A stretch of DNA of 64,000 nucleotides from Candidatus Enterousia sp. (GCA_045613785.1 JAZLBQ010000001.1:2571-66570); one strand, 5' to 3'. Counted from the first letter of the stretch, positions 1 to 49,994 are shown. The notes: generated by a model not told the origin, from the sequence alone. Numbers and translations: made by a program.

Positions 1-557
1 GTGCATTCTGAAAAAAATCTATTAAAATCAGCATCTTCTGCACAATTTCTGAAATCGGCAGTGCAACGTTGGTCTTGGATTAAACATGATTTAATTTCCG
101 AAGAACAGACCGTTTTAGATTTCTTTTTTGCCATCTTGTCCAGTGTTTGAGACATCTGAATTGATATCCCAGCAGCACGGCAGGACTGTTCAATAAGTTT
201 GTCATATGCTTCAGAAACGTCGTCAGGGGTGCAACCAGAAACTTTCTTGGTGCATTGCGTCGTTGCCCAGGCATAGCGTTCGCCAGGGGCAGATGGGGCA
301 GACTTTAATTCTTTGTCAGAAATGTTGTATTTTGCCGACGTGCCAACCGATACACTGTTCATCTTTTTTGCATTTGATGGTGTGCCAGCGTTCGCAGTGC
401 CGCAATATTGACACCGTGCCGCAGGATTTGATGATACATTTATCGCACATACTGAATCCAGGCAACGGGTCAGATTTGCACGGGAACATGTTGTTGCAGC
501 ATTGGCCGCAGGTGCCGCCAATATCGCAGTTAGTAAAAATATTCTATATGTTTTCAT
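1..557 (-). CDS. Partial CDS (N-terminal 185 aa; C-terminus lies beyond the window start) for a secreted cysteine-rich protein. It may be a fourth member of the Cys-rich paralog family.
   Basis: I translated the minus strand by hand from ATG at 557 (cat at 555-557). The product begins MKTYRIFLLTAILAAPAANAATTCSRANLTRCLDSVCAINV...CQYC. The frame stays open to position 1. It has a signal peptide with an AxA cleavage site. The Cys spacing C-x7-C-x-D-x2-C...C-x2-C resembles the N-terminal motif of the paralogs at 6627, 9828 and 12004. It is absent from the ORF track because it runs off the window edge. Confidence 0.5.
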   Translation of the reverse strand, partial: MKTYRIFLLTAILAAPAANAATTCSRANLTRCLDSVCAINVSSNPAARCQYCGTANAGTPSNAKKMNSVSVGTSAKYNISDKELKSAPSAPGERYAWATTQCTKKVSGCTPDDVSEAYDKLIEQSCRAAGISIQMSQTLDKMAKKKSKTVCSSEIKSCLIQDQRCTADFRNCAEDADFNRFFSEC

Positions 558-689
558 TTCTCTCTTGGTTCTTATTATAACAAAAATCAAAAGTGCTAGC
601 AAAAGAAAAAATATTTAATCTTAGTCTTGACAAAATGATATTCTTTGTCTATATTTTGTGTATAAATAACTTTAGAAAAGGATTAAAAA

Positions 690-1511
690 ATGGCAAGAAC
701 AAAAGAATGGTGGTGGATACACGCTTCGGCTGGGGTCGTTTCAGTTCTGTTGTTGGTAGGACTGTGCGGAACATGTAGTTCTGCGAATAATAAAAATGCA
801 GAATTGGAAAAGAAAAATGCAGATTTTAAAGAGGCAATCAATATACTGAAAAAAGCGAATGAAGCAATCGAGGGTTTGAAGTCTGAAAATGCTGTAAAGG
901 ACTCTATTATTGAAAAGCAGAGTGCTTTGTGGGCGGTAGTCGAAACTGAAAAAGGCGTTTTGCGTGATTCTATCACTGTGCTGAATGATTCTATTGATGG
1001 GTTAAACGAAGAATTAAAGCAGGTAAATGCTGATTTGGAAGATTGCAGAAACTCAAAAAAGTCTGCAGTAAAGAAGCCTGCAGTAAAGAAACCAGAACAG
1101 AAGAAAACGACTCCAAAAAAGTCAGAACAAAAGAAATCAGAACAAAAGAAGTCTGAGGAAACAAAGCCAGTGGTTGTGCCTGTTCAGCCAGTCAAGGTGG
1201 TTAAACCAGATACTGTTTATGTCGTTGTGGAACAACCAAGAAAGGATTGTGCAGGCGGTAAGACAAAAATCAATCTGGATAATTCGGATAACAATGGTGC
1301 TGTTGTTGTTGGTAAGCAATGTGTTCAGGATACAGAAATTACATTGCAGAACGGATCTGTCAATAATGGTGCAATTGTCGTAGGTAGCAATAATCACGTT
1401 GTTATTGGTGGAACTCAACAACAGGTGGTAGATACTTTGCGTCGTATTGAAAATGCTAATAAGGCATATGGTTATTACAAGGTAAAACGTGTTGTTCGCC
1501 GTGTAAGATAA
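690..1511 (+). CDS. Membrane-anchored coiled-coil protein with a lysine-rich tandem-repeat linker and a C-terminal beta-strand repeat region.
   Basis: N-terminal hydrophobic helix (VVSVLLLVGLCG). Heptad-like coiled coil through about residue 110. KKPAVKKPAVKKPEQKKTTPKKSEQKKSEQKKSEE is encoded by a DNA tandem repeat (tcagaacaaaagaa units at about 1120-1160). C-terminal NNGAVVVG / NNGAIVVG repeats. Confidence 0.55.
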   Translation: MARTKEWWWIHASAGVVSVLLLVGLCGTCSSANNKNAELEKKNADFKEAINILKKANEAIEGLKSENAVKDSIIEKQSALWAVVETEKGVLRDSITVLNDSIDGLNEELKQVNADLEDCRNSKKSAVKKPAVKKPEQKKTTPKKSEQKKSEQKKSEETKPVVVPVQPVKVVKPDTVYVVVEQPRKDCAGGKTKINLDNSDNNGAVVVGKQCVQDTEITLQNGSVNNGAIVVGSNNHVVIGGTQQQVVDTLRRIENANKAYGYYKVKRVVRRVR

Positions 1512-1629
1512 TGTTGTTGTTTGTTAGTATTCGGTTCGCATGTGCGAACCGATTTTTTTATGTGTTTTTTTATCTGGACAGGTAAAATAATCTTGTGCTA
1601 AGATTTATTTGTATATAGAGAGAATAGAT

Positions 1630-4600
1630 ATGAAGTTTATCAGATTTTTAGCGTTTTCTTTGTTCTTTGCTCCGTTCGCAGCAAGTGCAGCAAGCAGTGA
1701 TTTTATGATGGCAGCACAGTTGTTGGCAGCGGCCAAGGCAGCCGATATTCAACAGGTGCAAAGTTTGGTAAATGCTGGTGCTGATATAAACTTTGTTGAT
1801 TCAACAGGGGTTTCTATCGTTTGCACCGCTTTGATGAATAATGATGTGCGTGCGGCACAAATCTTGCAGATGTATGGGGCGGATGCGTCAAAATGTGATC
1901 GTCAGATAAAGCAATTTAATAATCGTAATAAACCCAGGGCCAGTGGAGGGCTGTTTAGCGGACTGTCGTCTGTCCAGGGGATTACGTTAGCGGCGGCGGG
2001 GGCCGCCGTTGTTGTAGGTGGCTTGTTGTTGCTGACTGATGTGTTCGACCCTGGTAATGATAATGATGCTGCATCATCAGATGGTAATCGACCCGACAAT
2101 AATCCAGATGATAATACTGATCAAAGTGCAGTGGCTTATTTGTCTGTGCCGTATAGTCCAGCGTATTTGGGACTTGATGGAAAAATCACAACAAGTGATG
2201 AGACTTATCGTGCAAATTTAACCTTGTGGGATCCAACCGCTGGCAGTGCTTTGCGTCAGGCGGATTTTAATTATTTTAGACCGCAGGTTCAGGCTGAAAA
2301 TAACTATGTTATCGACGGCTTATATTTGCCAATGCAGAATTATCTGTTGATGATGCATGGATATTCAGCCTTTGCTAATGAATATATGGGGCAGGGAATC
2401 TTTCGTGATACGGCAACTCGTAACCCGATATTAGTTGGAAACAGTGCTACTGGAGGGCGTCCTGTGATTGCAGGATTGGTAACAGATAATGGGGTTAGTC
2501 CTGTGGGGGCGTTGGATAGGTCTGGTGGTATAGTGTATGCAATTAGTGCGGCGGCAGATTCGGCAACTTATCTGGTGGATAAATTTACAAACTTTAATAA
2601 TCCAACATCTGATGGATTGGGAACTGAAATTGTTGGTTTTGATTTCTCGGGAAATGGAACTGCGATGAATTTGTTTGCCGATTCGTATGATAATGCACTG
2701 GGGAAAATTGTCGCCGGATGGGAGGCAGGTGGTCGCACAGATGGCGATTTAATCGGTTTTGTTCCAAATGGACGCTTGGGAATTTTTAGAACAGGTGGTG
2801 GTAAATATTGGCAGGATTTGGTTAGTCCACTTGAGGGGGAAGTTCTGGGAACGGTCGTAAATGGTGATGGGGCAGATGAAAATGCGATTGATGTTGGTGA
2901 TACGATAACCTTTGGTGGAAAAACTTATTTGATTTCGTTGGCTGTTGCAGATTCTACAATTGTCAATCCAACGATTACTATCAATGGAACGACCTATAAA
3001 TTGCCAAGTAATAGCACGCTGTTAAAGGGTGTTTGTTCGTCAAGTGTTGAAGGGGAATGTGATGACGTTTCTGATATTGCTATTTATCTTGGGGATGATG
3101 GTGCTTATTATGTAAATACAACAGGTACTAATTCTGTCGATAATGTCTTGATGGTAAATGGTGGTAATATTTATGCAAAAAAAGAATTAGTTGATGCAGA
3201 TTATAAAAATTTTCAGGCTTTATATAATGCACGCACTGTTAGCGATGTCTTGGCAAATGTATCCGTGATTGATGCGGCACGTGGAAATGATTATTTAACG
3301 ATTGCAGACGTGCCGGGCTTGTTCGATTTGACTTCGGCATCCAAGGAAGAAGTTTTTGCCGCACTGATAAATTCTGCGTATGACAAGAATAATTCTGATA
3401 TAAACAGCCAGGGTATGTATGCACACAGAATGTTTAATAATTATACTGCTGGTTCGCCAATTCTGCTTATGCCAGCAGGTGAATTTCAATGGACAGGTGG
3501 GGCAGCAAAATACGCAACATTTGAAAATTATGCTCCGTTGTTATATGACGGTAATTTGGAACATATGTTTATGACAATTGTTGCAGTTCAGCATACAGGT
3601 GGAACTGCAGGGGCTGGGTCTATTGCAGGTTATGGTAATGGCACTGGCGATAGTTATGGCCCGTTGCGTTTGTCTGTCTGGCAGGATTATAATGGAACGT
3701 TAGAAGATGCGTCTGATGATATTGTTTATATGTCCAGAAAATGTGGGGTTGCTGGTGTCGGATTAAATGGAATTGACCCTTGGTGCTTTGCAGCAGCAGG
3801 GCCAACAGCAGAAATGGCGACGGCTGCGGCGGCAGGGGCGGTTGCTTCATTGAAGGGGGCTTTTGATTATATGTCGAATCCTCAGATATTTATTTTGATG
3901 GCACTGACAGCGGACGGGTATTTGTTAGGAACAGATTCTACAGGTGGTGTTTTCACCAAGGATGCTTTGGTCGGATATTTGAAGAATATGTATTCGCTGC
4001 CATCGGAATATTATGAAGATACTTTGACAGGAGATGCATATTTACAGGCTTTTGCAGATGTGTTTGGTTATGGCTTGATAAATCTGGAACGGGCAATGAC
4101 ACCAAACAAGAAAATTTACTTCTTTGATGGAACAAATATTGTTTCCGCAGGCGGCAATGCGTATTGGCGTGCAGCACAAAATACAGTGTTTAGACCGTCA
4201 TCTGTCTTAAATATACGTGGGGCAACAATTCGGGCACCTTTCTTTGATGTTTTGGAAAGCGTTGATGGCAGTATGAGTCTGCCACGTGTTTGGGAAAATG
4301 AGTTTGCTTTTGGCACAAATGACAAGCGTGGTTTGTATATGGGTGATGTGTTGGGTGAATTAAAAACACGTCGTGATACAGAACAACGCACACAGGTTGG
4401 GGCATTGGGTGTTTCTATGCGGTTTTCAGAACGTGCCTATGTTGATAACTTAAATGGTTTGGATAATTTGAATTTGGATTTCCAAAGCGGAAAATGGAAT
4501 TTTGCGGCGTCTTATCAACGTTATTTAACAGATGGGGCGTCTAGATTCGATGGAACTGCTAATCCTGTTTTGGGATTGGTTTCAAATGCAGTCGTTTCCG

Positions 4601-5337
4601 ATGTTGTGTATAAGTCTGGTAATTGGTCTTTTGGTGGACGTGTCTTTTCAGGTGCAATCACAGATGAGGGGCTGTTAGAAAATGATCCGACAATTTCTGC
4701 CCAGTATATGCCTGCAAAGTTAGGATTGATGAACGGTGGACAGTCAACAATTGCATGGGAAAATGAAAAATTCAGTTTTGCAGGTAATTTTGGTGCTGCT
4801 TATGAAACAAATACATTGTTGGGGGCATGGACAGATGGACTGTTGAATTTGGGAAATGGTCAGACAATGTATGTGGATTTTGTTGGACAGTATAATTTTG
4901 CTGATATGGCTGAATTGACAGCACGAGCAACTTTTGCACAGACGATGTCTGATGTTGCCGGTGATTTTGTTTTGGGTATGTCTGATGTTTATTCAAATGC
5001 ATTTGCATTGGGGGTAAATTTTGGTGCCTTTGAATTTGCTGTGTCTCAGCCGTTGGCTATTACACGTGGGAATTTACAATATGCGTATGCTGACTATGAT
5101 GTTGTAGAAGTGGATAAAAACAAATATGAATTAAAGGTTGTTGATGCGTATGTTGCAGATTTAGATCTGCGGCCTGAAAAACGTGAAGTCCGTTTTGCAG
5201 GAACGTATCGTCATAATTTTGGTCAATTTACAGATGCTGCGTTTGGATTTATTTATAGGGTGAATCCAAATAATACAGATGATTTTGGAGATGAATCAAT
5301 ATTTATGATGAAGTTATCACATCGCTTGGGAATATAA
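1630..5337 (+). CDS. Large secreted protein: signal peptide, two ankyrin repeats, a subtilase (peptidase S8)-like domain with a possibly non-canonical Ser motif, and a C-terminal autotransporter-like beta domain.
   Basis: The start was moved to ATG 1630 (MKFIRFLAFSLFFAPFAASA, signal peptide) with a GAGAG-type RBS upstream. An ANK consensus is seen in AAKAADIQQVQSLVNAGADINFVDSTGVSIVCTALMNNDVRAAQILQMYGADAS. The S8-like C-lobe ...AFDYMSNPQI...GYGLINLERAMTP aligns with AFPYMTSPQI...GHGMLDLERATRP of the paralog at 51467-53332. At the position of GTSFAAP this protein has GPTAEMA. It is followed by the bidirectional terminator at 5338-5366. Confidence 0.7.
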   Translation: MKFIRFLAFSLFFAPFAASAASSDFMMAAQLLAAAKAADIQQVQSLVNAGADINFVDSTGVSIVCTALMNNDVRAAQILQMYGADASKCDRQIKQFNNRNKPRASGGLFSGLSSVQGITLAAAGAAVVVGGLLLLTDVFDPGNDNDAASSDGNRPDNNPDDNTDQSAVAYLSVPYSPAYLGLDGKITTSDETYRANLTLWDPTAGSALRQADFNYFRPQVQAENNYVIDGLYLPMQNYLLMMHGYSAFANEYMGQGIFRDTATRNPILVGNSATGGRPVIAGLVTDNGVSPVGALDRSGGIVYAISAAADSATYLVDKFTNFNNPTSDGLGTEIVGFDFSGNGTAMNLFADSYDNALGKIVAGWEAGGRTDGDLIGFVPNGRLGIFRTGGGKYWQDLVSPLEGEVLGTVVNGDGADENAIDVGDTITFGGKTYLISLAVADSTIVNPTITINGTTYKLPSNSTLLKGVCSSSVEGECDDVSDIAIYLGDDGAYYVNTTGTNSVDNVLMVNGGNIYAKKELVDADYKNFQALYNARTVSDVLANVSVIDAARGNDYLTIADVPGLFDLTSASKEEVFAALINSAYDKNNSDINSQGMYAHRMFNNYTAGSPILLMPAGEFQWTGGAAKYATFENYAPLLYDGNLEHMFMTIVAVQHTGGTAGAGSIAGYGNGTGDSYGPLRLSVWQDYNGTLEDASDDIVYMSRKCGVAGVGLNGIDPWCFAAAGPTAEMATAAAAGAVASLKGAFDYMSNPQIFILMALTADGYLLGTDSTGGVFTKDALVGYLKNMYSLPSEYYEDTLTGDAYLQAFADVFGYGLINLERAMTPNKKIYFFDGTNIVSAGGNAYWRAAQNTVFRPSSVLNIRGATIRAPFFDVLESVDGSMSLPRVWENEFAFGTNDKRGLYMGDVLGELKTRRDTEQRTQVGALGVSMRFSERAYVDNLNGLDNLNLDFQSGKWNFAASYQRYLTDGASRFDGTANPVLGLVSNAVVSDVVYKSGNWSFGGRVFSGAITDEGLLENDPTISAQYMPAKLGLMNGGQSTIAWENEKFSFAGNFGAAYETNTLLGAWTDGLLNLGNGQTMYVDFVGQYNFADMAELTARATFAQTMSDVAGDFVLGMSDVYSNAFALGVNFGAFEFAVSQPLAITRGNLQYAYADYDVVEVDKNKYELKVVDAYVADLDLRPEKREVRFAGTYRHNFGQFTDAAFGFIYRVNPNNTDDFGDESIFMMKLSHRLGI

Positions 5338-5366
5338 AAAAATCCCCCAAAAGGGGATTTTTTTAT
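5338..5366. terminator. Rho-independent terminator of the stereotyped family (A-tract, ATCCCC stem, GGGGAT, T-tract).
   Basis: aaaaaatcccccaaaaggggatttttttatt lies immediately after the stop at 5335-5337. Confidence 0.75.
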
Positions 5367-5419
5367 TGATTTTTGTTGTTATCTCTTTACTATTGTTTCG
5401 CAATTAAAGGATAAGAATA

Positions 5420-5848
5420 ATGGATATTAGTTTTAAGACAGTTGTAGAATATGTGAAAAATTTGTTCCCTGGTGCAGCCCCTGTTCAAATTAGCACGAAT
5501 CCAGAGTTGGATGCGGCTACGTTATTAAGAATTTCATCAAATAATTTGTATTTAAAGGCTAGAAATGGTAATCATTATTGGTATTGCTTTGTCGATGATG
5601 ATAATTTGCCAATGGCAAGATATTTGCTGAAAAGTAATGGTGTTAATGTTTCAAAACATTTTAGTCATTATAATCGGCCTTTTTATTCGACGTCAGCACA
5701 ACCGGTTTTACGTGTCAGGGTTTCTATATTGAACAAGAATCCTAAGGCTAAGAATTTTGTTGATTTGGTTATGAAACGCAAGGTGCTGAATTTTTCAGAT
5801 GAATGTGTTATGAAACATATGAATTCTGTAAGGCAAAATATGAAATAA
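5420..5848 (+). CDS. Hypothetical protein (142 aa).
   Basis: Intact ORF lying between two family terminators (5338-5366 and 5846-5876). I recognise no motif in it. Confidence 0.5.
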   Translation: MDISFKTVVEYVKNLFPGAAPVQISTNPELDAATLLRISSNNLYLKARNGNHYWYCFVDDDNLPMARYLLKSNGVNVSKHFSHYNRPFYSTSAQPVLRVRVSILNKNPKAKNFVDLVMKRKVLNFSDECVMKHMNSVRQNMK

Positions 5849-5876
5849 AAAATCCCCAAATCGGGGATTTTTTTGT
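5846..5876. terminator. Bidirectional Rho-independent terminator between convergent genes.
   Basis: aaaaaatccccaaatcggggatttttttg is flanked by the stops of the + gene (5848) and the - gene (5879). Confidence 0.75.
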
Positions 5877-5878
5877 TC

Positions 5879-6595
5879 TTATTCAGTTTTGAAATATTGT
5901 TCTTTTTGTTGTTGAGATAGGCGGAACATTTCATCAAAAATTGCGTCGGCATCCGCCATTGTAGTTGGGATGTCTTGTGTGGCATTTTGAATGTCTGTGC
6001 CGTTCAGAACAATTATGCGGGCCGGCAATAAATCACGTCCGCCATTGCAATCAATATAATATTCGTTCGGATTGTAATACTTGCCATAACAGCGACCGTT
6101 TTCAATAGCAATAAATCCGTCGTTTGCCAGAACTTCGCATGTTGGCTGAGTGTCATAGGTTATTTCGCCGTTTGCCAATGTTTCATCAGGTTTGATCAAA
6201 ATACCGTTGCACCATACTGGGACATATTTGCCGTTTACAGATGCCATTGCACCATCTTCGGCAGTTTTACGGCGGCCAAAGCAGTCGCCATCGGCACCCA
6301 GTAAATCTGTGTCAAAGTCAGCGTTTATTCCTGTGCCCTTGGCGATTTCAGCACGCCCCATAGGGACAGCGTCACGACCGCCAGACGTTAGTGCGTCAGG
6401 ACAAATCAGTTTTAAACCACGACAGTTGCTGGTGGCGTCCCACATTTCTGTGTCAAAACCAATGCCCATTGATGAATAGCAGTTCGTTGGACTTAGTCGG
6501 CAAATGGTTGGTTGCAGCCACCATGGTGTCGTGGCAGCATTTCCAGAAGCAATGCTGAATATTGATAATAGTGAAAGTGCCAATATTTTTTTCAT
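5879..6595 (-). CDS. Secreted cysteine-containing hypothetical protein (238 aa).
   Basis: The start was moved to ATG 6595 (MKKILALSLLSIFSIASGNA, signal peptide). It has 10 Cys residues. It lies 31 nt downstream of the 905-aa family member on the same strand. Confidence 0.6.
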   Translation of the reverse strand: MKKILALSLLSIFSIASGNAATTPWWLQPTICRLSPTNCYSSMGIGFDTEMWDATSNCRGLKLICPDALTSGGRDAVPMGRAEIAKGTGINADFDTDLLGADGDCFGRRKTAEDGAMASVNGKYVPVWCNGILIKPDETLANGEITYDTQPTCEVLANDGFIAIENGRCYGKYYNPNEYYIDCNGGRDLLPARIIVLNGTDIQNATQDIPTTMADADAIFDEMFRLSQQQKEQYFKTE

Positions 6596-6626
6596 AGTTC
6601 TCTCTTTTGATTCTATTTTATCAGAT

Positions 6627-9344
6627 TTAATTTGTTGGTTCAACTGTTGAAGTTTCTTCTGTCCATACTGCGTGCAGATTTACAAATGTTGACAAGTTGT
6701 ATATTTCCTCATATTCAAGAGTGTTTTTGATACATTGGCCGTTATTGTTGTAGTATTGGGTTTTATCCCCATTGTTCGGGTTTATGTAGAAATAACCTTG
6801 GAATTTATATGCTTCATCTTCGCACTCAGGAATCTCAACTGTTTCTGGTAGTTCTTCTTGGTGTTTAAGGTTTGCACCTGTGATGTTTACGGCTTTTTTG
6901 ACCGCTTGGCAGGTTTTCTCGTCTGTGTTCACAAAACTAACATTGATTGTGCTGCCTGAATTGTTGCTGGGGGTTGTGATGGTTGTGGTAGTTGTGTCAA
7001 CGGCACAGAATCCCCATTTGGTGTTTGCAGATGTTTCGTCATAGAATTTTTTGAATAATTCTTGACCTGTGGTGTCGTGCGTATCGTCGCCGGTTTTGTC
7101 TGTCCAGACCGTATCAACCCACAGTCCGCCCAGGCGTTCGCATTCGGCAGATAATGTGTTTGCCATTTCTGTGCGGATTTTGTCCATGACAATATTGATG
7201 TCTTGTAAAACGGTTGCGGGCAGGGCGTTTTTGGATTCTGATGGACGGACGCAGGCCTGTATTGCATAGCGTGCAATTTTGTGATACAGACTGCCAATAT
7301 AGTCTGTTCCACATTTGTCATTCTCGGTATCAGTGCTGGAATAAAGTGGTTCTTTGTTGGCTGTTCCGCCTGGACAGTATGAGTCTTTGGGACATGGTGT
7401 GCAGTTGTTGTTTTTCTTTGGTGTGCCGTCATATTCCCCATTTTGGTCTGTCATGTAGTAGCCAGGTTTGCAAGATGTGTATTTTATCAGTTCTGGACAT
7501 GCGTATATCTGTGTGATGTTTGATGTTTGTGTTGTAATGCTTTCAAATGCGGAACCACCACTGTTGATGTTTTGGGTTATCAAGTTGCATTGGTGGATTG
7601 ATGCATACATTTTGTCACCAGGTGCGTATGTTCGACAGGCGTATGGATAGGCGTGCAGGGTGTCGCTGCTGGGGACGGCACACAGGTCATGTGCGTAATC
7701 TTGTAATGTGGCCAGGCATTGGTCGGCAATGCGTTGGCTGGTTATGTCGTGCATCGCGGTAAGCAGTTCTGTCATGCCGTGTGAGCCGCCACCATATAAA
7801 TTACTGCAAGCGTCTAATTTTTCTTGGCACATTTCTTCGGATAATTCCAAACGTTGGCCTAGTAGTAATTGGTCTTTGACGTTGCTAAAATCTTTTAATG
7901 ATTTTGTTTGTTCGTCATAGCATTTTGTGACGATTTCAAAACAGTTGTTTTTTACCTGGCGAACACGTTCTTGTTGATTTTGGTAGATTTCCGCAATCGC
8001 TTGACGCATGAATTCGTCCCAAACTTCGTCCGATAAATCACGGCATGTGTCCAGGGATTGTTCGGCAAATTTTCGTTTGGAATTTAATGTTGCAACAAAT
8101 AGACGGTTTGTTTGGTTGTTTAAAACATCGCCAGATAATGATATTTGTGTTTCAAGTTTGTAAAAGTCAGGACTGTAAATCGGTTCGCCTGTTGTGTAGT
8201 TTAGATAGCGGCCTGTTACGTCAAGACAGTGAACGTAGTTTGGACCGCATGCTAATTCTGATGTTATGTCTGAACGGACGTTGGCGACACAATCATTGAT
8301 TGAAGTGGAATTGTGGTTGTTGTAATTTTCCAAACGTGCCAGGTTCATTTCACGTTCAGCAGCACGAATTGTGCTGTTGGCTGTGTTTAATTTGTCGTCA
8401 AGGTCATTTAATAATATCGAACAATCGTTTTCAATATACATCCCATATGCAGTTGTCACCATTGTCTGGGTGGCTGTGTCGGGGCATTTGTCGATTGTAA
8501 TTTCTGCACATTGGGCGTGAACTGCGTTGTATAAGGCTTCGCCTGTAAGGTTGCTGATGTTTGCACCGCCCATTAAATCGGTTGTTGCCCAGATTGAATT
8601 TATGTCGCCTGCGATATCTAATTTGCCCTGGGTCGATAATGATTGCGATTTCGTTTTTGATAAAACGTCCCTGATGCCAGCAAGTTGTGATGCACTGCCA
8701 GATGTGTCATTGGTAATTGATTGGGTGAATTCGCCAGTCGATGCAGAAAGCATTGCTTTGACTTCGGCCTTGGTTTTGTCAATTACTTCTAGGTTCAGGT
8801 TCTTGAAATCTTGTAATTGGTCGGCGGCTTGGGATAATGCACGTTCTCGTGATTGGATTTCAGGTAATTTTGTCGAACATATACAGCGACGATATGTGTC
8901 GTTGGCTATGCCACAGAACTGATCCATACAGGTAAAGTATGCGTCACGGCATGTGTTGTAGCCAGTGCCAAATGTGTTCGATTGAGTCGTGTTCATCGTA
9001 ATCGTTGCACGAGCAGGACGAATGGCACTGCGTGCAGAATTGGTGCGGTTCGCAGTTGTTCGAATTTTGTTGCCACTGATTGCACTTCGTGCAGTAGATA
9101 CTGTTTTTGTAGTTTGTGCTGTTGTTGCTGTGCGTGAATTACTGCGGTTCGTTGTCGCTGTGCGTGAAACAGTGCGATCAGACGTGGTGCGTGCCGTTGT
9201 TGTTTTTGTTGGGGGTGTTGTTTGAACTTGCGTTCGTGATGTTGTGCTTGTGTTACGGACAGGGCTTTTTTCACTGCGAACAGCGGCGTTGGCAAAACCA
9301 ACACCTAGCAATAGTGCTAGAATTGAAATGTTTATCCTTTTCAT
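6627..9344 (-). CDS. Large secreted cysteine-rich protein, paralog family member A (905 aa). It has an N-terminal Thr/Arg/Ser-rich low-complexity region.
   Basis: The start was moved to ATG 9344 (MKRINISILALLLGVGFANA, signal peptide). The ORF-track start at 9485 would overlap infA. Motif CRDAYFTCMDQFCGIANDTYRRCICS, then G.ALY...C...DC...C..N...CLD blocks shared with the ORFs at 9828 and 12004. C-terminal ECEDEAY. Confidence 0.75.
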   Translation of the reverse strand: MKRINISILALLLGVGFANAAVRSEKSPVRNTSTTSRTQVQTTPPTKTTTARTTSDRTVSRTATTNRSNSRTATTAQTTKTVSTARSAISGNKIRTTANRTNSARSAIRPARATITMNTTQSNTFGTGYNTCRDAYFTCMDQFCGIANDTYRRCICSTKLPEIQSRERALSQAADQLQDFKNLNLEVIDKTKAEVKAMLSASTGEFTQSITNDTSGSASQLAGIRDVLSKTKSQSLSTQGKLDIAGDINSIWATTDLMGGANISNLTGEALYNAVHAQCAEITIDKCPDTATQTMVTTAYGMYIENDCSILLNDLDDKLNTANSTIRAAEREMNLARLENYNNHNSTSINDCVANVRSDITSELACGPNYVHCLDVTGRYLNYTTGEPIYSPDFYKLETQISLSGDVLNNQTNRLFVATLNSKRKFAEQSLDTCRDLSDEVWDEFMRQAIAEIYQNQQERVRQVKNNCFEIVTKCYDEQTKSLKDFSNVKDQLLLGQRLELSEEMCQEKLDACSNLYGGGSHGMTELLTAMHDITSQRIADQCLATLQDYAHDLCAVPSSDTLHAYPYACRTYAPGDKMYASIHQCNLITQNINSGGSAFESITTQTSNITQIYACPELIKYTSCKPGYYMTDQNGEYDGTPKKNNNCTPCPKDSYCPGGTANKEPLYSSTDTENDKCGTDYIGSLYHKIARYAIQACVRPSESKNALPATVLQDINIVMDKIRTEMANTLSAECERLGGLWVDTVWTDKTGDDTHDTTGQELFKKFYDETSANTKWGFCAVDTTTTTITTPSNNSGSTINVSFVNTDEKTCQAVKKAVNITGANLKHQEELPETVEIPECEDEAYKFQGYFYINPNNGDKTQYYNNNGQCIKNTLEYEEIYNLSTFVNLHAVWTEETSTVEPTN

Positions 9345-9420
9345 CCGTATATATTCTGTGTTTATTTTATCAAAAATATGTGCTGATAACAAGCAAAATG
9401 AAATTGTTTTATTAAAATAA

Positions 9421-9448
9421 AAAACCGCCTTTTGGCGGCGTTTTTTAT
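9421..9448 (-). terminator. Rho-independent terminator at the infA 3' end.
   Basis: aaaaaaccgccttttggcggcgtttttt, a GC stem with flanking A and T tracts. Confidence 0.6.
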
Positions 9449-9693
9449 TGGTTTGTTGTTTCCCCCGTAGGACGATTGCGTTCAACGAATGTTATGCGTC
9501 CTTTGTCCAGGTCGTATGGGGTCATTTCAACACGAACACGTTCGCCAACGTTTACCCAAATGCGAGCCTTACGCATTTTGCCGCATACGGTCGCCAAAAT
9601 TTCATGTCCGTTTTCTAGTTTTACACGGAACATTGTGTTAGGTAATTTGTCTTCGACTGTGCCAGTGAAAACGATTACATCATCTTTTGCCAT
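9445..9693 (-). CDS. infA: Translation initiation factor IF-1.
   Basis: [68 protein letters not shown] matches the IF-1 S1-like fold consensus almost residue for residue. Confidence 0.9.
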
Positions 9694-9827
9694 TGTGTTT
9701 TATTCCTTGGGTTTTTATGGGGTATATCTTATTGTTTTTTATGGAAAATTGCAAGGAGTTTTTATTTGCTTGTGAATTTGGGGAAGTTTTGATAAAATAA
9801 AAACAAATTATGTAGGGTGGAGAAAAG

Positions 9828-11981
9828 ATGAAAATTAGAGTCTTGACTGCGTTATTGGCGTTGGTTCCAGGTGTGGCAGTGGCTGCAACCCGTGATGAAA
9901 CAGCACGTATTGGTGTAAATCGTGTCGCTGCTGCTGGTGTGCGTGCACCAACAATGGCTGTGAATATGTCGCCAAATATGAGCGTTGATGTTTCTGTGCC
10001 TGCAAAGAAGGAAGATAAAAATAATTCTGTCGTGGTTCAGCCAGGTGGTGATAAGCCAAGTGGTGGTGATGATTCTGGTGAAGGTAAAGAGCCTGTTATA
10101 AATGTAAATTGTCGTGAGGCATATCGGGCTTGTATGGATGAGTTTTGTTTGTTAGATGAGTCCGAAGGTTATCGTTGTGCTTGTTCGTCTAATATCAATA
10201 AGTCGAAAGATTTAATCAAGGAAATCCAAAAAATTCAAGAAGAGGCGGATAAGTTATATACCGAAGGTGTAGAACGGGAAAATTTGGGGGCAAAAGCACG
10301 CTTGGTCTTTGGTGAAAGTGAGGCGGCTAAGAAAAGTTCTCGTGTGTCGGGGCTTAGTTTCTCGGAGTGGTTGAATTCTGGGGCGATAGATGATGAAGCC
10401 TTGGATACTGATAATGATATTGGTGACGGTTTGTATGCGATGGCTTCTGAATTCTGCTCTGCGGAATTAGAGGGGTGTGCTGATAAAGCTGAAATGGAAG
10501 AGATGTTGTATTCTCGTCAGATTGTTGCAGACTGTAAATCATTTAATTCTTATTTGTCAGAACAGAAAATAAATGCCCAGGCAAATAAACGCACTGCAGA
10601 GGCCGCAGTTCGTCAGGCACGTCTGGCGATGCTGGATACGACTGATAAATATAATCGTGGTGAATGTTTGTTGGCGTATCGGTCCTGTATCGCAGACAAA
10701 GGTGGTTGTGGGGCGAATTTTGAAAACTGTTTAGATGCGGATTTGTTGGGGCGTCGCGCGTATGCCTGTGAAAATGTTTTAGATCAGTGTATGGCGGTCA
10801 GAAATTATGTTTTGCAAGACTGGGAAGCAGAATCAGAATCAATCTTGGTAGATGCGGCAAAGTATGCCGATAAATATCGTCGTCAGACTTGTTTAGCACA
10901 AATTCAGGTTTGTTTGGAAGATGGCTGTTCGACAGGAACTAATTCTGCGTGTTTGACTGATGTCAATGTCGCAGCAGGTGTTTGTCCAATTATTGATGAA
11001 TGTAATGCAATAATCCCTGGTTTAAAAAGTGTAGTAAATGACAAATTAGGTTATCTGCGGACACAATTCTGTCAAAACGATGTTGATGCGTGCTTGCGTG
11101 ATAAGTGCGGTGAAAACTTTACTGCACCAGAGTGTGTCGGTAAAAAAACTTCTGAGATAATCGCAATGTGTCCACAGACAATGTTCCCATCATGCAAAAA
11201 TGAAACTCAGTTTGATATTATTGTGTCGGCTGCTGTTTTGCAGATGGATTATCAGATGTTGCAAGGGTGCGTAAATTATTTTGGCGAACAACTGGGTAAG
11301 GTTTGTGGCACGGATATGGCGTGCTTGCCAACTGATGATGTTGTTGCTGGCTTGATGGAAATTCCTGATTCAGAACAGGGAATGGCAGACTTGCGTGTTA
11401 CGGTTCGTGATAATTCTAAGGCGGCGGTTAATGAATTCTTTAAGCAATTTGAAAAAGATATTACTGTTTCCGCTTGTGTAGATGCAAAAAAACCAGCAGG
11501 TCGCAAGAATTTAGGAGAAAATGTATTTAATACTGCAAAGTTGATTGCTGAAATTGGTGCAGAAAATCGTGCAATGCGTGAACTGGAAGCAAAGATTGCA
11601 GAGTTGTCTCGTCAGCAGGATATAGAAGAGGCCGAAGCAAATTGTTATGCGACATATAAGGTGGAAACACCAGATAAGTCGAGTAAAAATTATAGCTATG
11701 TTCGTAGCGTTGCCTTTGAACCAAGTTTAAGAAATTGTCATGTTTGCCGTATGCAGCAGGTCTGTGAAAAGGGTGGTGAATCCAAGGGAGCAGCTGGTCT
11801 GAAAGGTGCAGCAGGTGGATTGTCAGCTGGGGCTGCGGCAGGAACTATGGTTATGCCTGGCTGGGGAACAGCAATCGGTGGTGTCATCGGTGCAGTCGGT
11901 GGATTGTTCGCAGGACGTAGTGGTGCAGGTGAACAAGAGTTCTGTCAGGAAATCGAAAGTTGCGAAGATATAAATATGTAA
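9828..11981 (+). CDS. Large secreted cysteine-rich protein, paralog family member B (717 aa), with a C-terminal glycine-zipper hydrophobic segment.
   Basis: Signal peptide MKIRVLTALLALVPGVAVAA. Motif CREAYRACMDEFCLLDESEGYRCACS. The blocks MYSRQIVADCKSFN and KYNRGECLLAYRSCIADKGGCGANFENCLD are shared with the ORF at 12004. C-terminal NCHVCRMQQVCEKGG, then a GAAGGLSAGAAAGT...GGVIGAVGGLFAG segment, ending SCEDINM. Confidence 0.8.
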   Translation: MKIRVLTALLALVPGVAVAATRDETARIGVNRVAAAGVRAPTMAVNMSPNMSVDVSVPAKKEDKNNSVVVQPGGDKPSGGDDSGEGKEPVINVNCREAYRACMDEFCLLDESEGYRCACSSNINKSKDLIKEIQKIQEEADKLYTEGVERENLGAKARLVFGESEAAKKSSRVSGLSFSEWLNSGAIDDEALDTDNDIGDGLYAMASEFCSAELEGCADKAEMEEMLYSRQIVADCKSFNSYLSEQKINAQANKRTAEAAVRQARLAMLDTTDKYNRGECLLAYRSCIADKGGCGANFENCLDADLLGRRAYACENVLDQCMAVRNYVLQDWEAESESILVDAAKYADKYRRQTCLAQIQVCLEDGCSTGTNSACLTDVNVAAGVCPIIDECNAIIPGLKSVVNDKLGYLRTQFCQNDVDACLRDKCGENFTAPECVGKKTSEIIAMCPQTMFPSCKNETQFDIIVSAAVLQMDYQMLQGCVNYFGEQLGKVCGTDMACLPTDDVVAGLMEIPDSEQGMADLRVTVRDNSKAAVNEFFKQFEKDITVSACVDAKKPAGRKNLGENVFNTAKLIAEIGAENRAMRELEAKIAELSRQQDIEEAEANCYATYKVETPDKSSKNYSYVRSVAFEPSLRNCHVCRMQQVCEKGGESKGAAGLKGAAGGLSAGAAAGTMVMPGWGTAIGGVIGAVGGLFAGRSGAGEQEFCQEIESCEDINM

Positions 11982-12003
11982 TCTGTTTTTACGGAGAGAG
12001 TTT

Positions 12004-14508
12004 ATGAAAAGAAATATGACTGTTTTATGTTCTGTGTTGTGTGCCCTGGCAATGTTGCCAGGGAACAATGCGTTTGGAGCAACCATCAAAAAAACGACAA
12101 AGCAGTCGGCAATTCAAAAGGGAACTACTGTCAGAGCAAAAACTTCTGCGAATGGGTTGTATGATCAGGCGTGTTATGATGCATATTATGGATGTATGGA
12201 TCAATTTTGTATCTCTGAAAATGAATCAGGTGGCAGTTGTGCATGCAGCGATTTAAATCAGGGCTATAATGAACAGTTGTTGGATATTCAAAAAACTTTG
12301 GCCGAGGCAGAACGTGTCGCAACTGAAGAAGTAGAAAAGGTAAAACTTGGGGCAAATGCTGATATTGTATTTACAGGGACACGTAAATATGATGAAAATG
12401 GTAATTTGCTAGATGTTGATGAAATTGAAACTGAAACAGCGTCTAAGGAAAAAAAACGTGCCGATTTAATGGCGTTGTGGGATGCTAATTTAGGCGAAGA
12501 AGATGAAGATGTCTTTGCTAATGATGTGCTAGATATCGCAGATTTAACTGGTGATGCATTGTATGCAGCTGCTGAAGAGATTTGTTTGGCTCAGGTGCCT
12601 GATTCTTGTGCAAAAGATATGACTTTGTTGAAAAATATGTATTCTCGACAAATTGTTTCGGATTGCAAGGGGTTCGAAAATAGTATTGCACAGAAAAAAG
12701 CAGAGGCTGATTCTGCATTGGCACAGGCAAATGCTGATGTAAGAAGTGCATTAAAGGAATCGCTGGATGCGTCAAACAAGTATGATTTAGGGCAGTGTAT
12801 GGTTCAATTTAAGAACTGTATGAAAACAGATGATGCATGTGGTGAAAATTGGGAAAACTGTGTGTTCACTGTTGCGTCTGAAAATATGCAAAATAATATC
12901 GCAAAAAGCACCGCAGGAACAACAATCGCAACTGTGAATAAATATGATATCACAGAATCTACAATGGAAATTCTAAATTCAAAACGCACTATTTGTGAAA
13001 ATATCCTGGGGCAGTGTGTGAAGGTTCGTGATATGGTTTGGCCTGCTTTCCTGCGTGAGGCTGCACCAACAATCAAGGTGGCAGAAAGTGCGGCAGAATC
13101 TAAATTCCGTCAATCTTGTCTGACAAATATTTCTGGCTGTATTCAAAAGGCTTGTCGTGATGATATTGTCGGACGGGGCGTTGATACAATGGACGCTTGT
13201 CTGTCACGACCAGATATGGTGCGTAGTTTCTGTAAGGTTGAAATCGACCCGTGTGAACGTATGGAACCGTTGATTTGGGGGTATGTAAAAGATAAATTAG
13301 CAGCAATGCGTGTTGATGTTTGCACAAATGAAGTAAAAGAGTGTTTTACAGCAGAAACACGTTGTGGTGAAAATTTCCAGAACTGTATTGGTATGGATTA
13401 TGATTATATTCACGATATTTGTCCAATCGATAGTTTGGTTGTTTGCAAGGCTAATAATCCAGAATTTTCAATGGATGATTTGGATTCTATGTTGATGGGG
13501 CTGTATCTGAATATTGATAATTCAGCATTAGATCAATGTCAAGAACTGGTCGATCGCAAGATGGCAGAAATATGTGGTAGCACAACTGACTGTAATCGAT
13601 TTGCTAGCGATGATACAATTGGAACGGGCAGTTTGCGTTCTCAGAAAGACGGCACAGTTTATCGTGTAACTGGTATGATTTCTTTTGGTTCTATTAAGAT
13701 GGGTGATGCATCAGGACGAATGCTTGATGAGGGAAAGGATGATGCCATAAAGTTGGGGCCGGGTGAAATCGGTGTTGCTGAATATTTGCAGCAAATTCGT
13801 GATCGTAATGTAGGCGTTCAAAATGCAGATGGTATTATTTCAAGTATCGAGGAAGAATTGAATAATATCGCAGGAACAATCAATCGGACAATTGAAATGA
13901 TTGAATCTGACCCTGAAATTCAGTTCTGTGTTAGTGGGCGTGATTTGTCGCAAATTACAGGTAAAAAGGGTAAAACGACGGCTCGTTTCCCAAATCTGTT
14001 GAATCAGGTTAAAATGCAGATTGCGATTGCTGCACTGCGTCAGGCCCAGGATAATTATAATGCAAAATTTAATACCGCTGTTGCAGAGGCAACAAAAGAT
14101 GCATCTGCGGATATTGCACAATATATGTGTCATAAGATGGCGGAAGTAGGTGCAACAACGTTGAAAAGTCCAAATGTTGATTTGGCACCACCATATGCAA
14201 TCAGTTATGATGTTGGCACAGGACTTGTGACAGAAGATTTAACAACCGGTGGACATGCTGTTCAGGATCTGGCCAAGGTTAATTTCAAAAATGGTGGATA
14301 TCTGGGTGGTGCAAAAATGGATATGAATTCGGGGACCAAGGAAACCTCGGCTGTGTTTAATCGTGAGACAAGAACTTGTCATGTTTGCACAACAATAGTA
14401 ACACAAAGTTGTAAAACTACAGGCAGTTCGTCGTGGTTCCATAATAGTCGCAAGATTGACTGTAAAACAAATGATCCGATTGAAAAATGTGAAGATATTC
14501 CAATGTAA
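12004..14508 (+). CDS. Large secreted cysteine-rich protein, paralog family member C (834 aa).
   Basis: Signal peptide MKRNMTVLCSVLCALAMLPGNNAFG. Motif CYDAYYGCMDQFCISENESGGSCACS. Blocks MYSRQIVSDCKGFE and KYDLGQCMVQFKNCMKTDDACGENWENC. C-terminal TCHVCTTIVTQSC...KCEDIPM. It is followed by the terminator at 14511-14545. Confidence 0.8.
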   Translation: MKRNMTVLCSVLCALAMLPGNNAFGATIKKTTKQSAIQKGTTVRAKTSANGLYDQACYDAYYGCMDQFCISENESGGSCACSDLNQGYNEQLLDIQKTLAEAERVATEEVEKVKLGANADIVFTGTRKYDENGNLLDVDEIETETASKEKKRADLMALWDANLGEEDEDVFANDVLDIADLTGDALYAAAEEICLAQVPDSCAKDMTLLKNMYSRQIVSDCKGFENSIAQKKAEADSALAQANADVRSALKESLDASNKYDLGQCMVQFKNCMKTDDACGENWENCVFTVASENMQNNIAKSTAGTTIATVNKYDITESTMEILNSKRTICENILGQCVKVRDMVWPAFLREAAPTIKVAESAAESKFRQSCLTNISGCIQKACRDDIVGRGVDTMDACLSRPDMVRSFCKVEIDPCERMEPLIWGYVKDKLAAMRVDVCTNEVKECFTAETRCGENFQNCIGMDYDYIHDICPIDSLVVCKANNPEFSMDDLDSMLMGLYLNIDNSALDQCQELVDRKMAEICGSTTDCNRFASDDTIGTGSLRSQKDGTVYRVTGMISFGSIKMGDASGRMLDEGKDDAIKLGPGEIGVAEYLQQIRDRNVGVQNADGIISSIEEELNNIAGTINRTIEMIESDPEIQFCVSGRDLSQITGKKGKTTARFPNLLNQVKMQIAIAALRQAQDNYNAKFNTAVAEATKDASADIAQYMCHKMAEVGATTLKSPNVDLAPPYAISYDVGTGLVTEDLTTGGHAVQDLAKVNFKNGGYLGGAKMDMNSGTKETSAVFNRETRTCHVCTTIVTQSCKTTGSSSWFHNSRKIDCKTNDPIEKCEDIPM

Positions 14509-14510
14509 AT

Positions 14511-14545
14511 AAAAAAGCAGGCCCTTTTGGGTCTGTTTTTTTTAT
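14511..14545 (+). terminator. Rho-independent terminator.
   Basis: aaaaaagcaggcccttttgggtctgtttttttt. Confidence 0.6.
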
Positions 14546-17779: not shown

Positions 17780-18859
17780 TTAGTCTATTTTGACAGGAAC
17801 TATCGTTTGCTTCTTGGCTGTGTCCAGTGAGTGATATTGGAACGGAACAGATGCAAAATTTATCTCTTTCATGTCCAGACTGCGGACTGTGCGATTATAC
17901 ATCGTATGATAGTATATAACCATATCTTTTAGGTCTGTGGCAACAGTCCACTGGGTGGCCGAAGGCATATTGTTTGGGGCAGTACCTACTGCAAACTGAA
18001 CGCCCAGGGGAACGTCAAAGTTGTTCAGGATATGAAAGGCCTGTTGAATTGTGTCGTATGCATTATCTTGCTGTAAAGAGTAGGTTTTTAAGAATGCTGC
18101 ACGGACAAAGCGTGATGGTGGTGTAAAGTCGCCTGGCAAGCCCAAGAATCCAGAACCAGAACCGAATGAACGCAGTTTAATTGGACCGAACTCGGTTGGG
18201 CCAGCACCACCAGGATGCAGGTTTACATAGTTGTTCAGGTTCGTTAGTTGCCATTGGAATCCTGGGGAATTGGTCAGGACGCCGACTTCGTTTTCGTAAA
18301 AGTTTGGAATGCCATTTACAATTTCCAAGACAACTTGGCGACCATTGGGTTCGGTTATTCGCCAATGGACCGTGCCGGCATTTGGATCAACGTTTATGAT
18401 ACGGACATCATTGATGGCTGCTTTGACTTGGTCGATTGTGGCAAAGCGTGATAATATCCAAGATACAACCTGGAAATCAGCCAAGGATATGTCTTTGTTG
18501 GCTTCGTTATATGGTTCGTAACTGCCGTAGTTTGGAAAGTAAAACAGGGCGGCAGACAGACCGGCTTCGTTTGTGCCGTCGATTATAAATTCAGGCTGTT
18601 CGGTTGCGATGCCGGCATATCCATAGAGTGATGTAAATGACAGGCCGTTCATTGTGCCGTCTGGCAGTAATGATTGGGCAGCATGCCCACGTGGAACAAT
18701 GACATACATATTGTTGTTTTCAGAACCTGACCAGTCCATTGTTCGGGCAACAACAGTTGTGTTGTCTAGTGATTTTAATGTGATGCCTGTGCAGGCGTTT
18801 GATGATTGAATCAGTGCAAGGCACATGGTTAGTGTGGATAAAAATAGTAAATGTTTCAT
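17780..18859 (-). CDS. Choloylglycine hydrolase / penicillin V acylase family Ntn-hydrolase (linear amide C-N hydrolase).
   Basis: A signal peptide is followed directly by the nucleophile Cys (SSNACTGITLKSLDNTTVVARTMDWSG), as in the CBAH family. 359 aa, typical for the family. Confidence 0.7.
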   Translation of the reverse strand: MKHLLFLSTLTMCLALIQSSNACTGITLKSLDNTTVVARTMDWSGSENNNMYVIVPRGHAAQSLLPDGTMNGLSFTSLYGYAGIATEQPEFIIDGTNEAGLSAALFYFPNYGSYEPYNEANKDISLADFQVVSWILSRFATIDQVKAAINDVRIINVDPNAGTVHWRITEPNGRQVVLEIVNGIPNFYENEVGVLTNSPGFQWQLTNLNNYVNLHPGGAGPTEFGPIKLRSFGSGSGFLGLPGDFTPPSRFVRAAFLKTYSLQQDNAYDTIQQAFHILNNFDVPLGVQFAVGTAPNNMPSATQWTVATDLKDMVIYYHTMYNRTVRSLDMKEINFASVPFQYHSLDTAKKQTIVPVKID

Positions 18860-31340: not shown

Positions 31341-31366
31341 AAAAAAACGCCCGAAGGCGTTTTTTA
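31341..31366 (-). terminator. Rho-independent terminator downstream of the MotB-like gene.
   Basis: aaaaaaaacgcccgaaggcgttttttatc, directly after the stop at 31364. Confidence 0.65.
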
Positions 31367-40374: not shown

Positions 40375-40400
40375 ATAACCGCCATAATGGCGGTTATTTT
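40375..40400. terminator. Bidirectional terminator between convergent genes.
   Basis: aaaaataaccgccataatggcggttatttttatc. Confidence 0.6.
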
Positions 40401-41332: not shown

Positions 41333-41335
41333 TTT

Positions 41336-49965: not shown

Positions 49966-49994
49966 AAATCCCCCAGGTGGGGGATTTTTATTTG
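49964..49994. terminator. Family terminator, bidirectional.
   Basis: aaaaatcccccaggtgggggatttttattt. Confidence 0.75.

Follow-up and report, generated by a model that had tools for sequence, protein, structure and literature searches.

What are the three large cysteine (Cys)-rich proteins that Candidatus Enterousia sp. encodes on both sides of infA, and which function might they serve? The genes, here called A, B and C, lie in the first part of a 64,000-nucleotide (nt) stretch of DNA (GCA_045613785.1, JAZLBQ010000001.1:2571-66570), referred to as the window, with positions counted from its first letter. Candidatus Enterousia is a member of the uncultured order Rs-D84, which is widespread in the guts of humans, livestock, poultry and termites and has genomes of 0.75-1.0 Mb (PMC12306168). 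These bacteria are described as strictly fermentative, without a respiratory chain, flagella or standard transporters, and as retaining MreB, RodA and MrdA (rod shape, peptidoglycan); an obligate symbiotic or parasitic life, with metabolites obtained from other cells, has been proposed for them (PMC12306168). A first-pass annotation had taken A, B and C for a tandem expansion under diversifying selection, wrapped around infA. Our analysis shows that they belong, with strong conservation, to the core genome of Candidatus Enterousia and its relatives among the Rs-D84 gut Alphaproteobacteria, whose genomes are below 1 Mb. The open reading frames (ORFs) concerned, whose limits were confirmed by an ORF listing, and their nearest neighbours are:

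6627-9344, minus strand: member A, 905 amino acids (aa) from its ATG, with signal peptide MKRINISILALLLGVGFANA, a Thr/Arg/Ser-rich linker (ARSAI-type repeats), a helical Cys-rich core with 29 conserved Cys and a variable C-terminal tail
9828-11981, plus strand: member B, 717 aa, with signal peptide (cleavage between AVA and AT) and helical Cys-rich core, ending SCEDINM
12004-14508, plus strand: member C, 834 aa, with signal peptide (cleavage between AFG and A)
9445-9693, minus strand: infA (IF-1), between A and B; eIF-1a (PF01176) was called at the same position in relatives
5879-6595, minus strand: E238, an exported protein of 238 aa whose 9 Cys are fully conserved; its gene always follows A immediately downstream and is co-oriented with it

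A longer ORF of A, started at a TTG, would run into infA. Each of A, B and C carries a Sec-type signal peptide with an AxA-like cleavage site, in agreement with their annotation as large Cys-rich proteins with export signals.

A, B and C are true, ancient paralogs of one undescribed family, with similarity far above chance. In an all-against-all BLASTP comparison of the window's ORFs, B and C shared 29% identity over 485 aa (E=1.7e-54), with E=3.7e-21 between A and C and E=1.8e-10 between A and B, and the alignments were collinear, which bears out the paralogy seen at first pass. A hidden Markov model (HMM) of the family matched A with E=1.5e-78, covering only its N-terminal ~570 residues. The N-terminal motif C-x2-AY-x2-CMD-x-FC-x9-C-x-CS was present in all three translations and exact in all three paralogs (CRDAYFTCMDQFC...CICS, CREAYRACMDEFC...CACS and CYDAYYGCMDQFC...CACS). 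Among 111 diverse family members, C69, C79 and C81 of this signature were invariant, and C57, C64, M65, D66 and F68 were kept in at least 90% (numbering of C). Its location in C is:

12172-12249, plus strand: signature motif of C, CYDAYYGCMDQFCISENESGGSCACS; the equivalents are residues 132-157 of A and 95-120 of B

Two internal blocks that had been assigned to all three proteins, MYSRQIV-x-DCK-x-F and KY..G.C...CG.N.ENC, are common to B and C and degenerate in A. The endings were as described, with TCHVC or NCHVC and a terminal CEDI(P/N)M in C and B, and ECEDEAY in A.

The family is large and was found only in gut metagenome-assembled genomes (MAGs) labelled Alphaproteobacteria, Candidatus Enterousia or Rickettsiales. 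An exhaustive phmmer search with C against 1.84 billion cluster representatives (clusters at 50% identity) gave 697 clusters at E<=1e-3, 231 of them at E<=1e-30, with lengths of mostly 800-1150 aa. Their sole annotation was 'hypothetical protein', and the MAGs of origin were Alphaproteobacteria or Rickettsiales. The proteins nearest to A, B and C belong to gut MAGs that carry the label Alphaproteobacteria bacterium or Candidatus Enterousia sp. A profile search of a 5.8-billion-protein set with a divergent alignment was limited by its word prefilter to 20 matches and contributed little. The best Pfam and NCBIfam matches of A, B and C all fell under the curated cut-off (E 0.004-0.08), and Pfam, NCBIfam, PHROGs and PADLOC gave nothing above threshold for A, B, C, E238 or D, a small Cys-rich protein at the window's edge (see below). 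The PHROGs and PADLOC matches to B spanned only or mainly a Gly-rich hairpin and look compositional. Among 45 diverse relatives Pfam found no domain at E<=1e-3 and no fused known domain. Sequence searches of the PDB (HMMER), with a single protein and with a profile, gave no match, and Foldseek found nothing significant for a model of C (see below), the best PDB match having E=0.66 and the best BFVD match, to long-helix tape-measure-like proteins, E=0.023. The first-pass remark that the family was not recognisable was thus borne out. No homolog was found by tblastn on 72,556 plasmids or on phages, which indicates that the family is not mobile, and in the literature on Enterousia, Rs-D84 and Cx6C with periplasm we found no description of it. 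We regard both the family and its fold as new; our claim of novelty covers these two points, and function is what we infer in the following.

For the comparison among relatives we sampled the best 80 of 317 stretches encoding relatives, which were detected by scanning a single genome for each GTDB species, plus six further loci (86 in total). All of these loci whose flanks were present had the genes arranged as E238(-), A(-), infA(-), B(+), C(+). Exactly three family members were present at 72 of the 86 loci, and A, B and C each had one syntenic ortholog in about 80 species-level genomes, which places the duplications before the radiation of the genus. Identity to the window was 51-84% for A (68 orthologs), mostly 65-92% for B (47% and 52% in the best segment at two loci), 64-82% for C, 42-86% for E238 (syntenic in 73 loci) and 86-99% for infA. 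Extra family members occurred elsewhere in some genomes, such as a copy of 955 aa that lies within the ribosomal-protein cluster in one genome (L086) and two copies in another (L085). Among the matches was a circular MAG chromosome of 958,618 bp (L080). The full E238-A-infA-B-C block was also present in an entry deposited as Bacteroides fragilis (CAVGNU010000011.1), which is most likely a mislabelled bin.

Selection was assessed by the ratio of nonsynonymous to synonymous substitution rates (dN/dS; Nei-Gojobori) against the nearest relative (L003, dS ~0.75). Values were 0.127 for A, 0.048 for B, which is the most conserved member, 0.140 for C and 0.008 for infA, with 0.113 for a neighbouring autotransporter-like gene (G1242, 1609-5337). 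In sliding windows of 60 codons the maximum was 0.61, at residues 721-780 of C; the tail of A reached 0.54-0.59, also below 1, and B never exceeded 0.13. One-to-one orthology together with low dN/dS indicates old single-copy sets under purifying selection and no recent diversifying expansion. The proposal of a tandem expansion therefore fails on the one-to-one syntenic orthologs and the prevailing copy number of three, and that of diversifying selection on the low dN/dS of genes and codon windows and on the retention of the Cys. We also rejected a diversifying multigene surface-antigen family, as neither copy-number variation nor raised dN/dS between close relatives was found.

The Cys of these proteins are numerous and regularly placed. 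They make up 3.5-5.0% of A, B and C, compared with at most 1.4% in most cytoplasmic proteins of the window. All 36 mature Cys of B and all 36 of C were kept in 96-100% of 82-85 orthologs, while A, with 29 conserved Cys, and E238, with 9, have odd numbers, which, as a speculation, hints at an intermolecular bond between the two. Consecutive Cys exactly seven residues apart occurred 10 times in C (1.2 expected, P<2e-4), 8 times in B (1.4 expected, P<2e-4) and 4 times in A (0.9 expected, P=0.011), and the C-x6-C spacings of the family often form runs of four. A DsbA-family gene was present in a relative (L001:19685-20506, E=1.4e-19). Its product has 273 aa and an N-terminal hydrophobic region, and the adjoining gene (L001:20548-21105, minus strand) encodes an exported, Cys-rich protein of 185 aa, in which an ephrin-receptor-like repeat scored below threshold (E=9.5e-4).

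Structure prediction pointed to a mostly helical protein. With an alignment of 60 sequences, AlphaFold2 modelled C with a predicted local distance difference test score (pLDDT) of 66.9; with 111 diverse sequences the mean pLDDT was 83.3 and the predicted template modelling score 0.57, and 494 residues had a pLDDT of at least 90. In this model a signal peptide and disordered linker, up to about residue 54, are followed by helices from 55 to about 717, several of which are 35-58 residues long. The helical part has 31 Cys and is interrupted at 545-584 by a small beta insertion. TCHVC and the terminal CEDIPM lie in a C-terminal beta domain (768-833). Positions 322-445 of the family profile match positions 498-588 of the same profile (hhalign probability 88%, E=3e-6), which indicates an internal module duplication corresponding to CMVQFKNCMKTDDACGENWENC and CTNEVKECFTAETRCGENFQNC in C. 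Where C has a short loop in its beta domain, B carries a 37-residue hydrophobic hairpin, which confirms the glycine zipper noted at first pass, with a putative role as membrane anchor. The hairpin is kept in B orthologs (median uncharged run of 37 residues among 85) and absent from A and C. The sequence C-E-D-[IV]-x-M is the exact C-terminus in 83 of 85 B orthologs and is found in all common C-ortholog endings listed. A is without the C-terminal beta domain and has a lineage-variable tail in its place. The features of the three proteins are:

11805-11915, plus strand: glycine-zipper hydrophobic hairpin of B, GAAGGLSAGAAAGTMVMPGWGTAIGGVIGAVGGLFAG, residues 660-696; putative membrane anchor
11961-11978, plus strand: C-terminal motif CEDINM of B, exact end
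12796-12861, plus strand: module copy 1 of C, CMVQFKNCMKTDDACGENWENC (C-x6-C-x6-C-x6-C), internal duplication
13321-13386, plus strand: module copy 2 of C, CTNEVKECFTAETRCGENFQNC; the module is also present in the small protein D
14488-14505, plus strand: C-terminal motif CEDIPM of C, exact end
8952-9284, minus strand: N-terminal low-complexity Thr/Arg/Ser-rich region of A, with STARSAI, NSARSAI and RPARATI copies in translation
6630-7004, minus strand: C-terminal tail of A past C780, the last of its conserved Cys; a hypervariable part when orthologs are compared

The Thr/Arg/Ser-rich region of A, also described before, is one case of a more general pattern. N-terminal linkers of 101 diverse members were rich in Ala, Thr, Val, Ser, Gly and Arg, and AR[AS][AG] occurred in them 214 times, against 14 in shuffles, with 2-5 copies per protein ('VSARAA') in 70 of the 101. 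The last copy is fused to a conserved block, ARAAxxQKVIxxGTKV, ahead of the first Cys motif. The STARSAI, NSARSAI and RPARATI copies of A are local versions of this family-wide repeat, for which we know of no counterpart.

The genes around infA appear to form three transcription units, namely A-E238, infA and B-C, judging from the arrangement of gaps and putative signals. A and E238 are co-oriented and 31 nt apart, with a purine-rich ribosome-binding site. B and C are separated by 22 nt, with GGAGAGAG ahead of the ATG of C, and overlap by 4 nt in one relative (L084). The putative signals are:

9424-9439, minus strand: terminator-like hairpin after infA (GCCGCC-AAAA-GGCGG, then a T-run)
9392-9364, minus strand: promoter-like site ahead of A
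5847-5873: terminator-like hairpin after E238
14511-14542, plus strand: terminator-like hairpin after C (14-pair stem, then a T-run)

Since infA has its own terminator-like hairpin and A a promoter-like site ahead of it, the family is not functionally wrapped around infA as had been suggested. The position of infA is a case of conserved synteny with no evidence of a functional link, and infA stands outside the family.

What might these proteins do? We tentatively favour, with somewhat less than an even chance of being right, a disulfide-stapled, membrane-anchored assembly of the envelope or cell surface. A, B and C would be exported by Sec, and a DsbA-type oxidase would then link neighbouring helices by disulfide ladders, giving rigid, protease-resistant rods. 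B would anchor the assembly in the membrane via its glycine-zipper hairpin, most likely in the outer membrane from the periplasmic side. C would associate with B, with which it shares the operon, the C-terminal domain and the tail, and A might do so together with its co-oriented candidate partner E238. The result would be a structural scaffold of the envelope or cell surface, which could serve as a contact interface with the partner cells that metabolically dependent bacteria rely on. Such an assembly would presumably be neither an enzyme nor a fast-evolving effector. This reading is supported by the core status, synteny and purifying selection of the family, by the even Cys counts of B and C and the heptad spacing, and by the helical model, the module duplication, the conservation of zipper and C-terminal motif, the operon signals and the DsbA-family gene in a relative. 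We also counted in its favour that the window encodes numerous further exported proteins rich in Cys, that the family is not mobile, and the reduced, partner-dependent lifestyle predicted for these bacteria.

Several points weigh against the envelope scaffold. Homology ties the family to no function or location. The disulfides are suggested by conservation, parity and spacing of the Cys and not by distances in the model, and only the gene order suggests that A, B, C and E238 associate physically. Re-oxidation of DsbA is unexplained, as Rs-D84 reportedly has no respiratory chains (PMC12306168). Oxidising more than 100 conserved extracytoplasmic Cys in a strictly fermentative anaerobe is thus a biochemical puzzle. 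The zipper of B (residues 660-697) matches Gly-zipper_Omp (PF13488) with 13.3 bits, under the cut-off of 25, and B is without a lipobox. No route across the outer membrane was found, and Pfam gave no beta-barrel domain in A, B or C.

Among the alternatives, the one that survives best, and is still unlikely, is the view taken at first pass, which had an adhesin, effector or surface-layer family in mind: the three proteins would be exposed on the cell as adhesins or as a coat and would diversify under pressure from host, phage or partner. The tail of A would fit this. It varies between 3 and 251 aa beyond the last conserved Cys, sometimes with extra Cys-rich modules, and cannot be aligned from one species to another (identity among orthologs of 2-14% in blocks of 20 residues). 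The relaxed dN/dS of 0.5-0.6 in this tail and at residues 721-780 of C, the low-complexity N-terminal linkers, a sub-threshold ephrin-receptor-like Cys repeat in A and the Pmp-type and other autotransporters in the neighbourhood point in the same direction. The lineage-variable part is, however, confined to the C-terminal tail of A, and the trio is one-to-one orthologous with no variation in copy number. Gene-wide dN/dS is 0.05-0.14 with no window above 1, ortholog identity is 64-92% across about 80 species, and A, B and C have no domain for outer-membrane translocation. A diversifying adhesin or coat protein thus fits the tail of A only. A type V autotransporter was rejected, as PF03797 is absent from A, B and C and was found by the same library, as a positive control, in a neighbouring gene (24591-28514, E=5e-29). 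A Listeria-Bacteroides (Flg_new-like) repeat in the tail of A (YKFQGYFY...LHAVW) was dropped, with no Pfam support even at E<=10.

We regard it as improbable that the proteins are alpha-helical pore-forming or membrane-inserting effectors that enter membranes of partner or host with the glycine zipper as the inserting element. The long helices of the model and the strongly hydrophobic Gly-rich hairpin of B would be compatible with such a role, as would a lifestyle predicted to depend on metabolites from other cells (PMC12306168), and Foldseek matched long-helix toxins or translocators (TcdA1, SipD, pyocin S5), all insignificantly (E>2). However, the hairpin is present in B only, no fold match was significant, and the highly conserved chromosomal position and sequence are atypical for toxins. 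Dense disulfide stapling, if present, would also argue against the large refolding typical of alpha-pore-formers.

Very improbable is a role of the Cys as ligands or redox centres, in a periplasmic metal- or sulfur-binding or thiol-buffer protein of a strict anaerobe. In its favour, oxidative folding at very high Cys content is puzzling in an organism without respiratory chains, and B and C each have one conserved CHVC motif. On the other hand, the Cys of B and C are even in number (36 each) and all invariant, and they stand in heptad C-x6-C spacing on predicted helices rather than in CxxC or CxxCH clusters. Pfam gave no match to Fe-S or heme motifs, and the DsbA-family gene in a relative also argues for disulfides. 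Compositional coincidence or mis-called ORFs, to which only the low-complexity N-termini would point, are already refuted by the collinear alignments (E down to 1e-54), the non-random Cys spacing, the 697 clusters, purifying selection and a confident fold prediction.

For the envelope scaffold, the nearest analogues are functional or architectural and not homologous. Chlamydial OmcB and OmcA are Sec-exported Cys-rich envelope proteins of a reduced-genome, partner-dependent Gram-negative bacterium, in which rigidity of the envelope is thought to be disulfide-based. Our case resembles them in Cys-rich export in a partner-dependent bacterium with a reduced genome, in the rigidity that disulfides would confer and in the co-occurrence of an autotransporter with Pmp repeats (24591-28514 in the window). 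It differs in that the family has no sequence or Pfam similarity to OmcB or OmcA, has heptad Cys and a predicted fold that is largely alpha-helical, and occurs in bacteria that keep rod-shape and peptidoglycan genes (PMC12306168). For disulfide cross-linking between molecules into a detergent-insoluble envelope complex, the odd numbers of conserved Cys in A and E238 are the only hint. The hairpin of B resembles Gly-zipper_Omp domains (SlyB/Pcp, Rickettsia 17-kDa antigen) in its G-x3-G-rich sequence with a central PGWG turn and in length and composition. In B, however, the zipper is a small insertion in an otherwise unrelated 717-aa protein, and the signal peptide (AVA followed by ATRDE at the cleavage site) has neither the Cys nor the lipobox of SlyB/Pcp lipoproteins. 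CHCH twin-CX9C proteins offer an analogy only, with Cys at a fixed helical period, paired disulfides between helices and an oxidising extracytoplasmic compartment. Their spacing is CX9C and not C-x6-C, their size about 100 aa compared with 700-900 aa, and no sequence relationship to A, B and C was found. Helicobacter Hcp proteins (Sel1-like repeats) are secreted helical-repeat proteins of a gut bacterium with disulfide-bridged helix pairs. Here, no Sel1 or TPR match was found by Pfam in A, B, C or 45 diverse relatives, and the helices of the C model are much longer (35-58 residues). TraN, TraU and TraH of F-type conjugation are large exported proteins with many conserved Cys that depend on Dsb. 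By comparison, A, B and C have no Pfam match to them and lie amid chromosomal housekeeping genes, the family has a homolog on 0 of 72,556 plasmids, and the window has no genes for a type IV secretion system.

The three large paralogs take up ~7.4 kb, roughly 0.8% of such a genome, fixed in place and strongly constrained across the sampled lineage. Given their fixed place, strong constraint and lack of a relative in curated sequence or structure resources, they are prime candidates for an envelope or contact structure that defines the lineage. A bolder version of the envelope scaffold, which we consider quite unlikely, would combine A, B, C, E238 and the other Cys-rich exported proteins into an envelope structure not seen before, a zipper-anchored, disulfide-laddered alpha-helical scaffold universal in Rs-D84 that serves these transporter-poor bacteria as interface for attaching to partner cells and drawing metabolites from them. 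If true, the Alphaproteobacteria would have in this scaffold a counterpart to the machinery by which Patescibacteria attach. A, B and C also offer a concrete handle on Rs-D84, for antibodies, fluorescence in situ hybridisation combined with immunogold labelling, metaproteomic markers and structural work on recombinant protein.

Two small proteins at the locus had to be placed relative to the family. E238 as a diverged member was rejected, since hhalign aligned the signal peptide only (probability 32%). The other is the gene cut by the edge of the window:

1-557, minus strand: D, the N-terminal 185 aa of a small exported Cys-rich protein (~290 aa), with signal peptide and Cys-rich N-terminus

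D had been described as a partial member of similar Cys spacing. It indeed has one ~43-residue module (C-x6-C-x6-C-x6-C) in common with the family (hhalign probability 76%, E=2e-5; hmmsearch domain i-E 1.7e-4). Full-length orthologs in seven related genomes comprise 291-325 codons from stop to stop and ~290 aa from the first Met, and D as a fourth large member was accordingly rejected. By this module D appears to be a small relative.

A large share of the 64-kb window codes for envelope or exported proteins, Cys-rich ones included. A signal-peptide protein of 283 aa (49988-50839, minus strand) contains 30 Cys (10.6%); it lies outside the family HMM, has no significant Pfam domain and is one more member of an unusually Cys-rich exported proteome. 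In an exported protein of 1114 aa (19784-23128, minus strand), 25 Cys fall within the first 520 residues, a hydrophobic segment rich in Gly, Ala and Thr lies at ~430-480, and the C-terminal part is long and helical and contains HENGGH; this protein had only weak matches (HblD, E=0.0024) and an ortholog of 29% identity in a relative (L009). Large surface-type proteins are encoded at 1609-5337 (plus strand), with an ankyrin-like N-terminus (sub-threshold), and at 51467-53332 (minus strand), an S8 subtilase; the C-termini of the two resemble each other (26% over 152 aa). The gene at 24591-28514 (plus strand) encodes an autotransporter with Chlamydia PMP repeats.

Further genes of the window include an OmpA-family protein with a coiled-coil region (31364-32476, minus strand), which adjoins a 257-aa membrane protein (32505-33278, minus strand) with a weak MotA/TolQ/ExbB match (E=0.016; 0.01 in L001). 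The pair is kept in relatives (L001:15312-17169, L083:17197-19112) and could represent a divergent form of a stator or Tol-like system. Next to it lie tandem paralogs of 330 and 337 aa (33352-34344 and 34347-35360, both minus strand), which are 36% identical (E=3.6e-23) and have no Pfam match. A Fic/DOC-domain protein (40400-42061, minus strand; E=2e-15) adjoins an APH/choline-kinase-like phosphotransferase. A bile-salt-hydrolase-like protein of the choloylglycine hydrolase family with a signal peptide (17780-18859, minus strand; PF02275, E=1e-64) fits the gut habitat. GC skew was positive in nearly all 2-kb bins of positions 1-64000 and the cumulative skew climbed almost monotonically, which indicated that the whole window apparently lies on one replichore, with strong compositional asymmetry between the strands.

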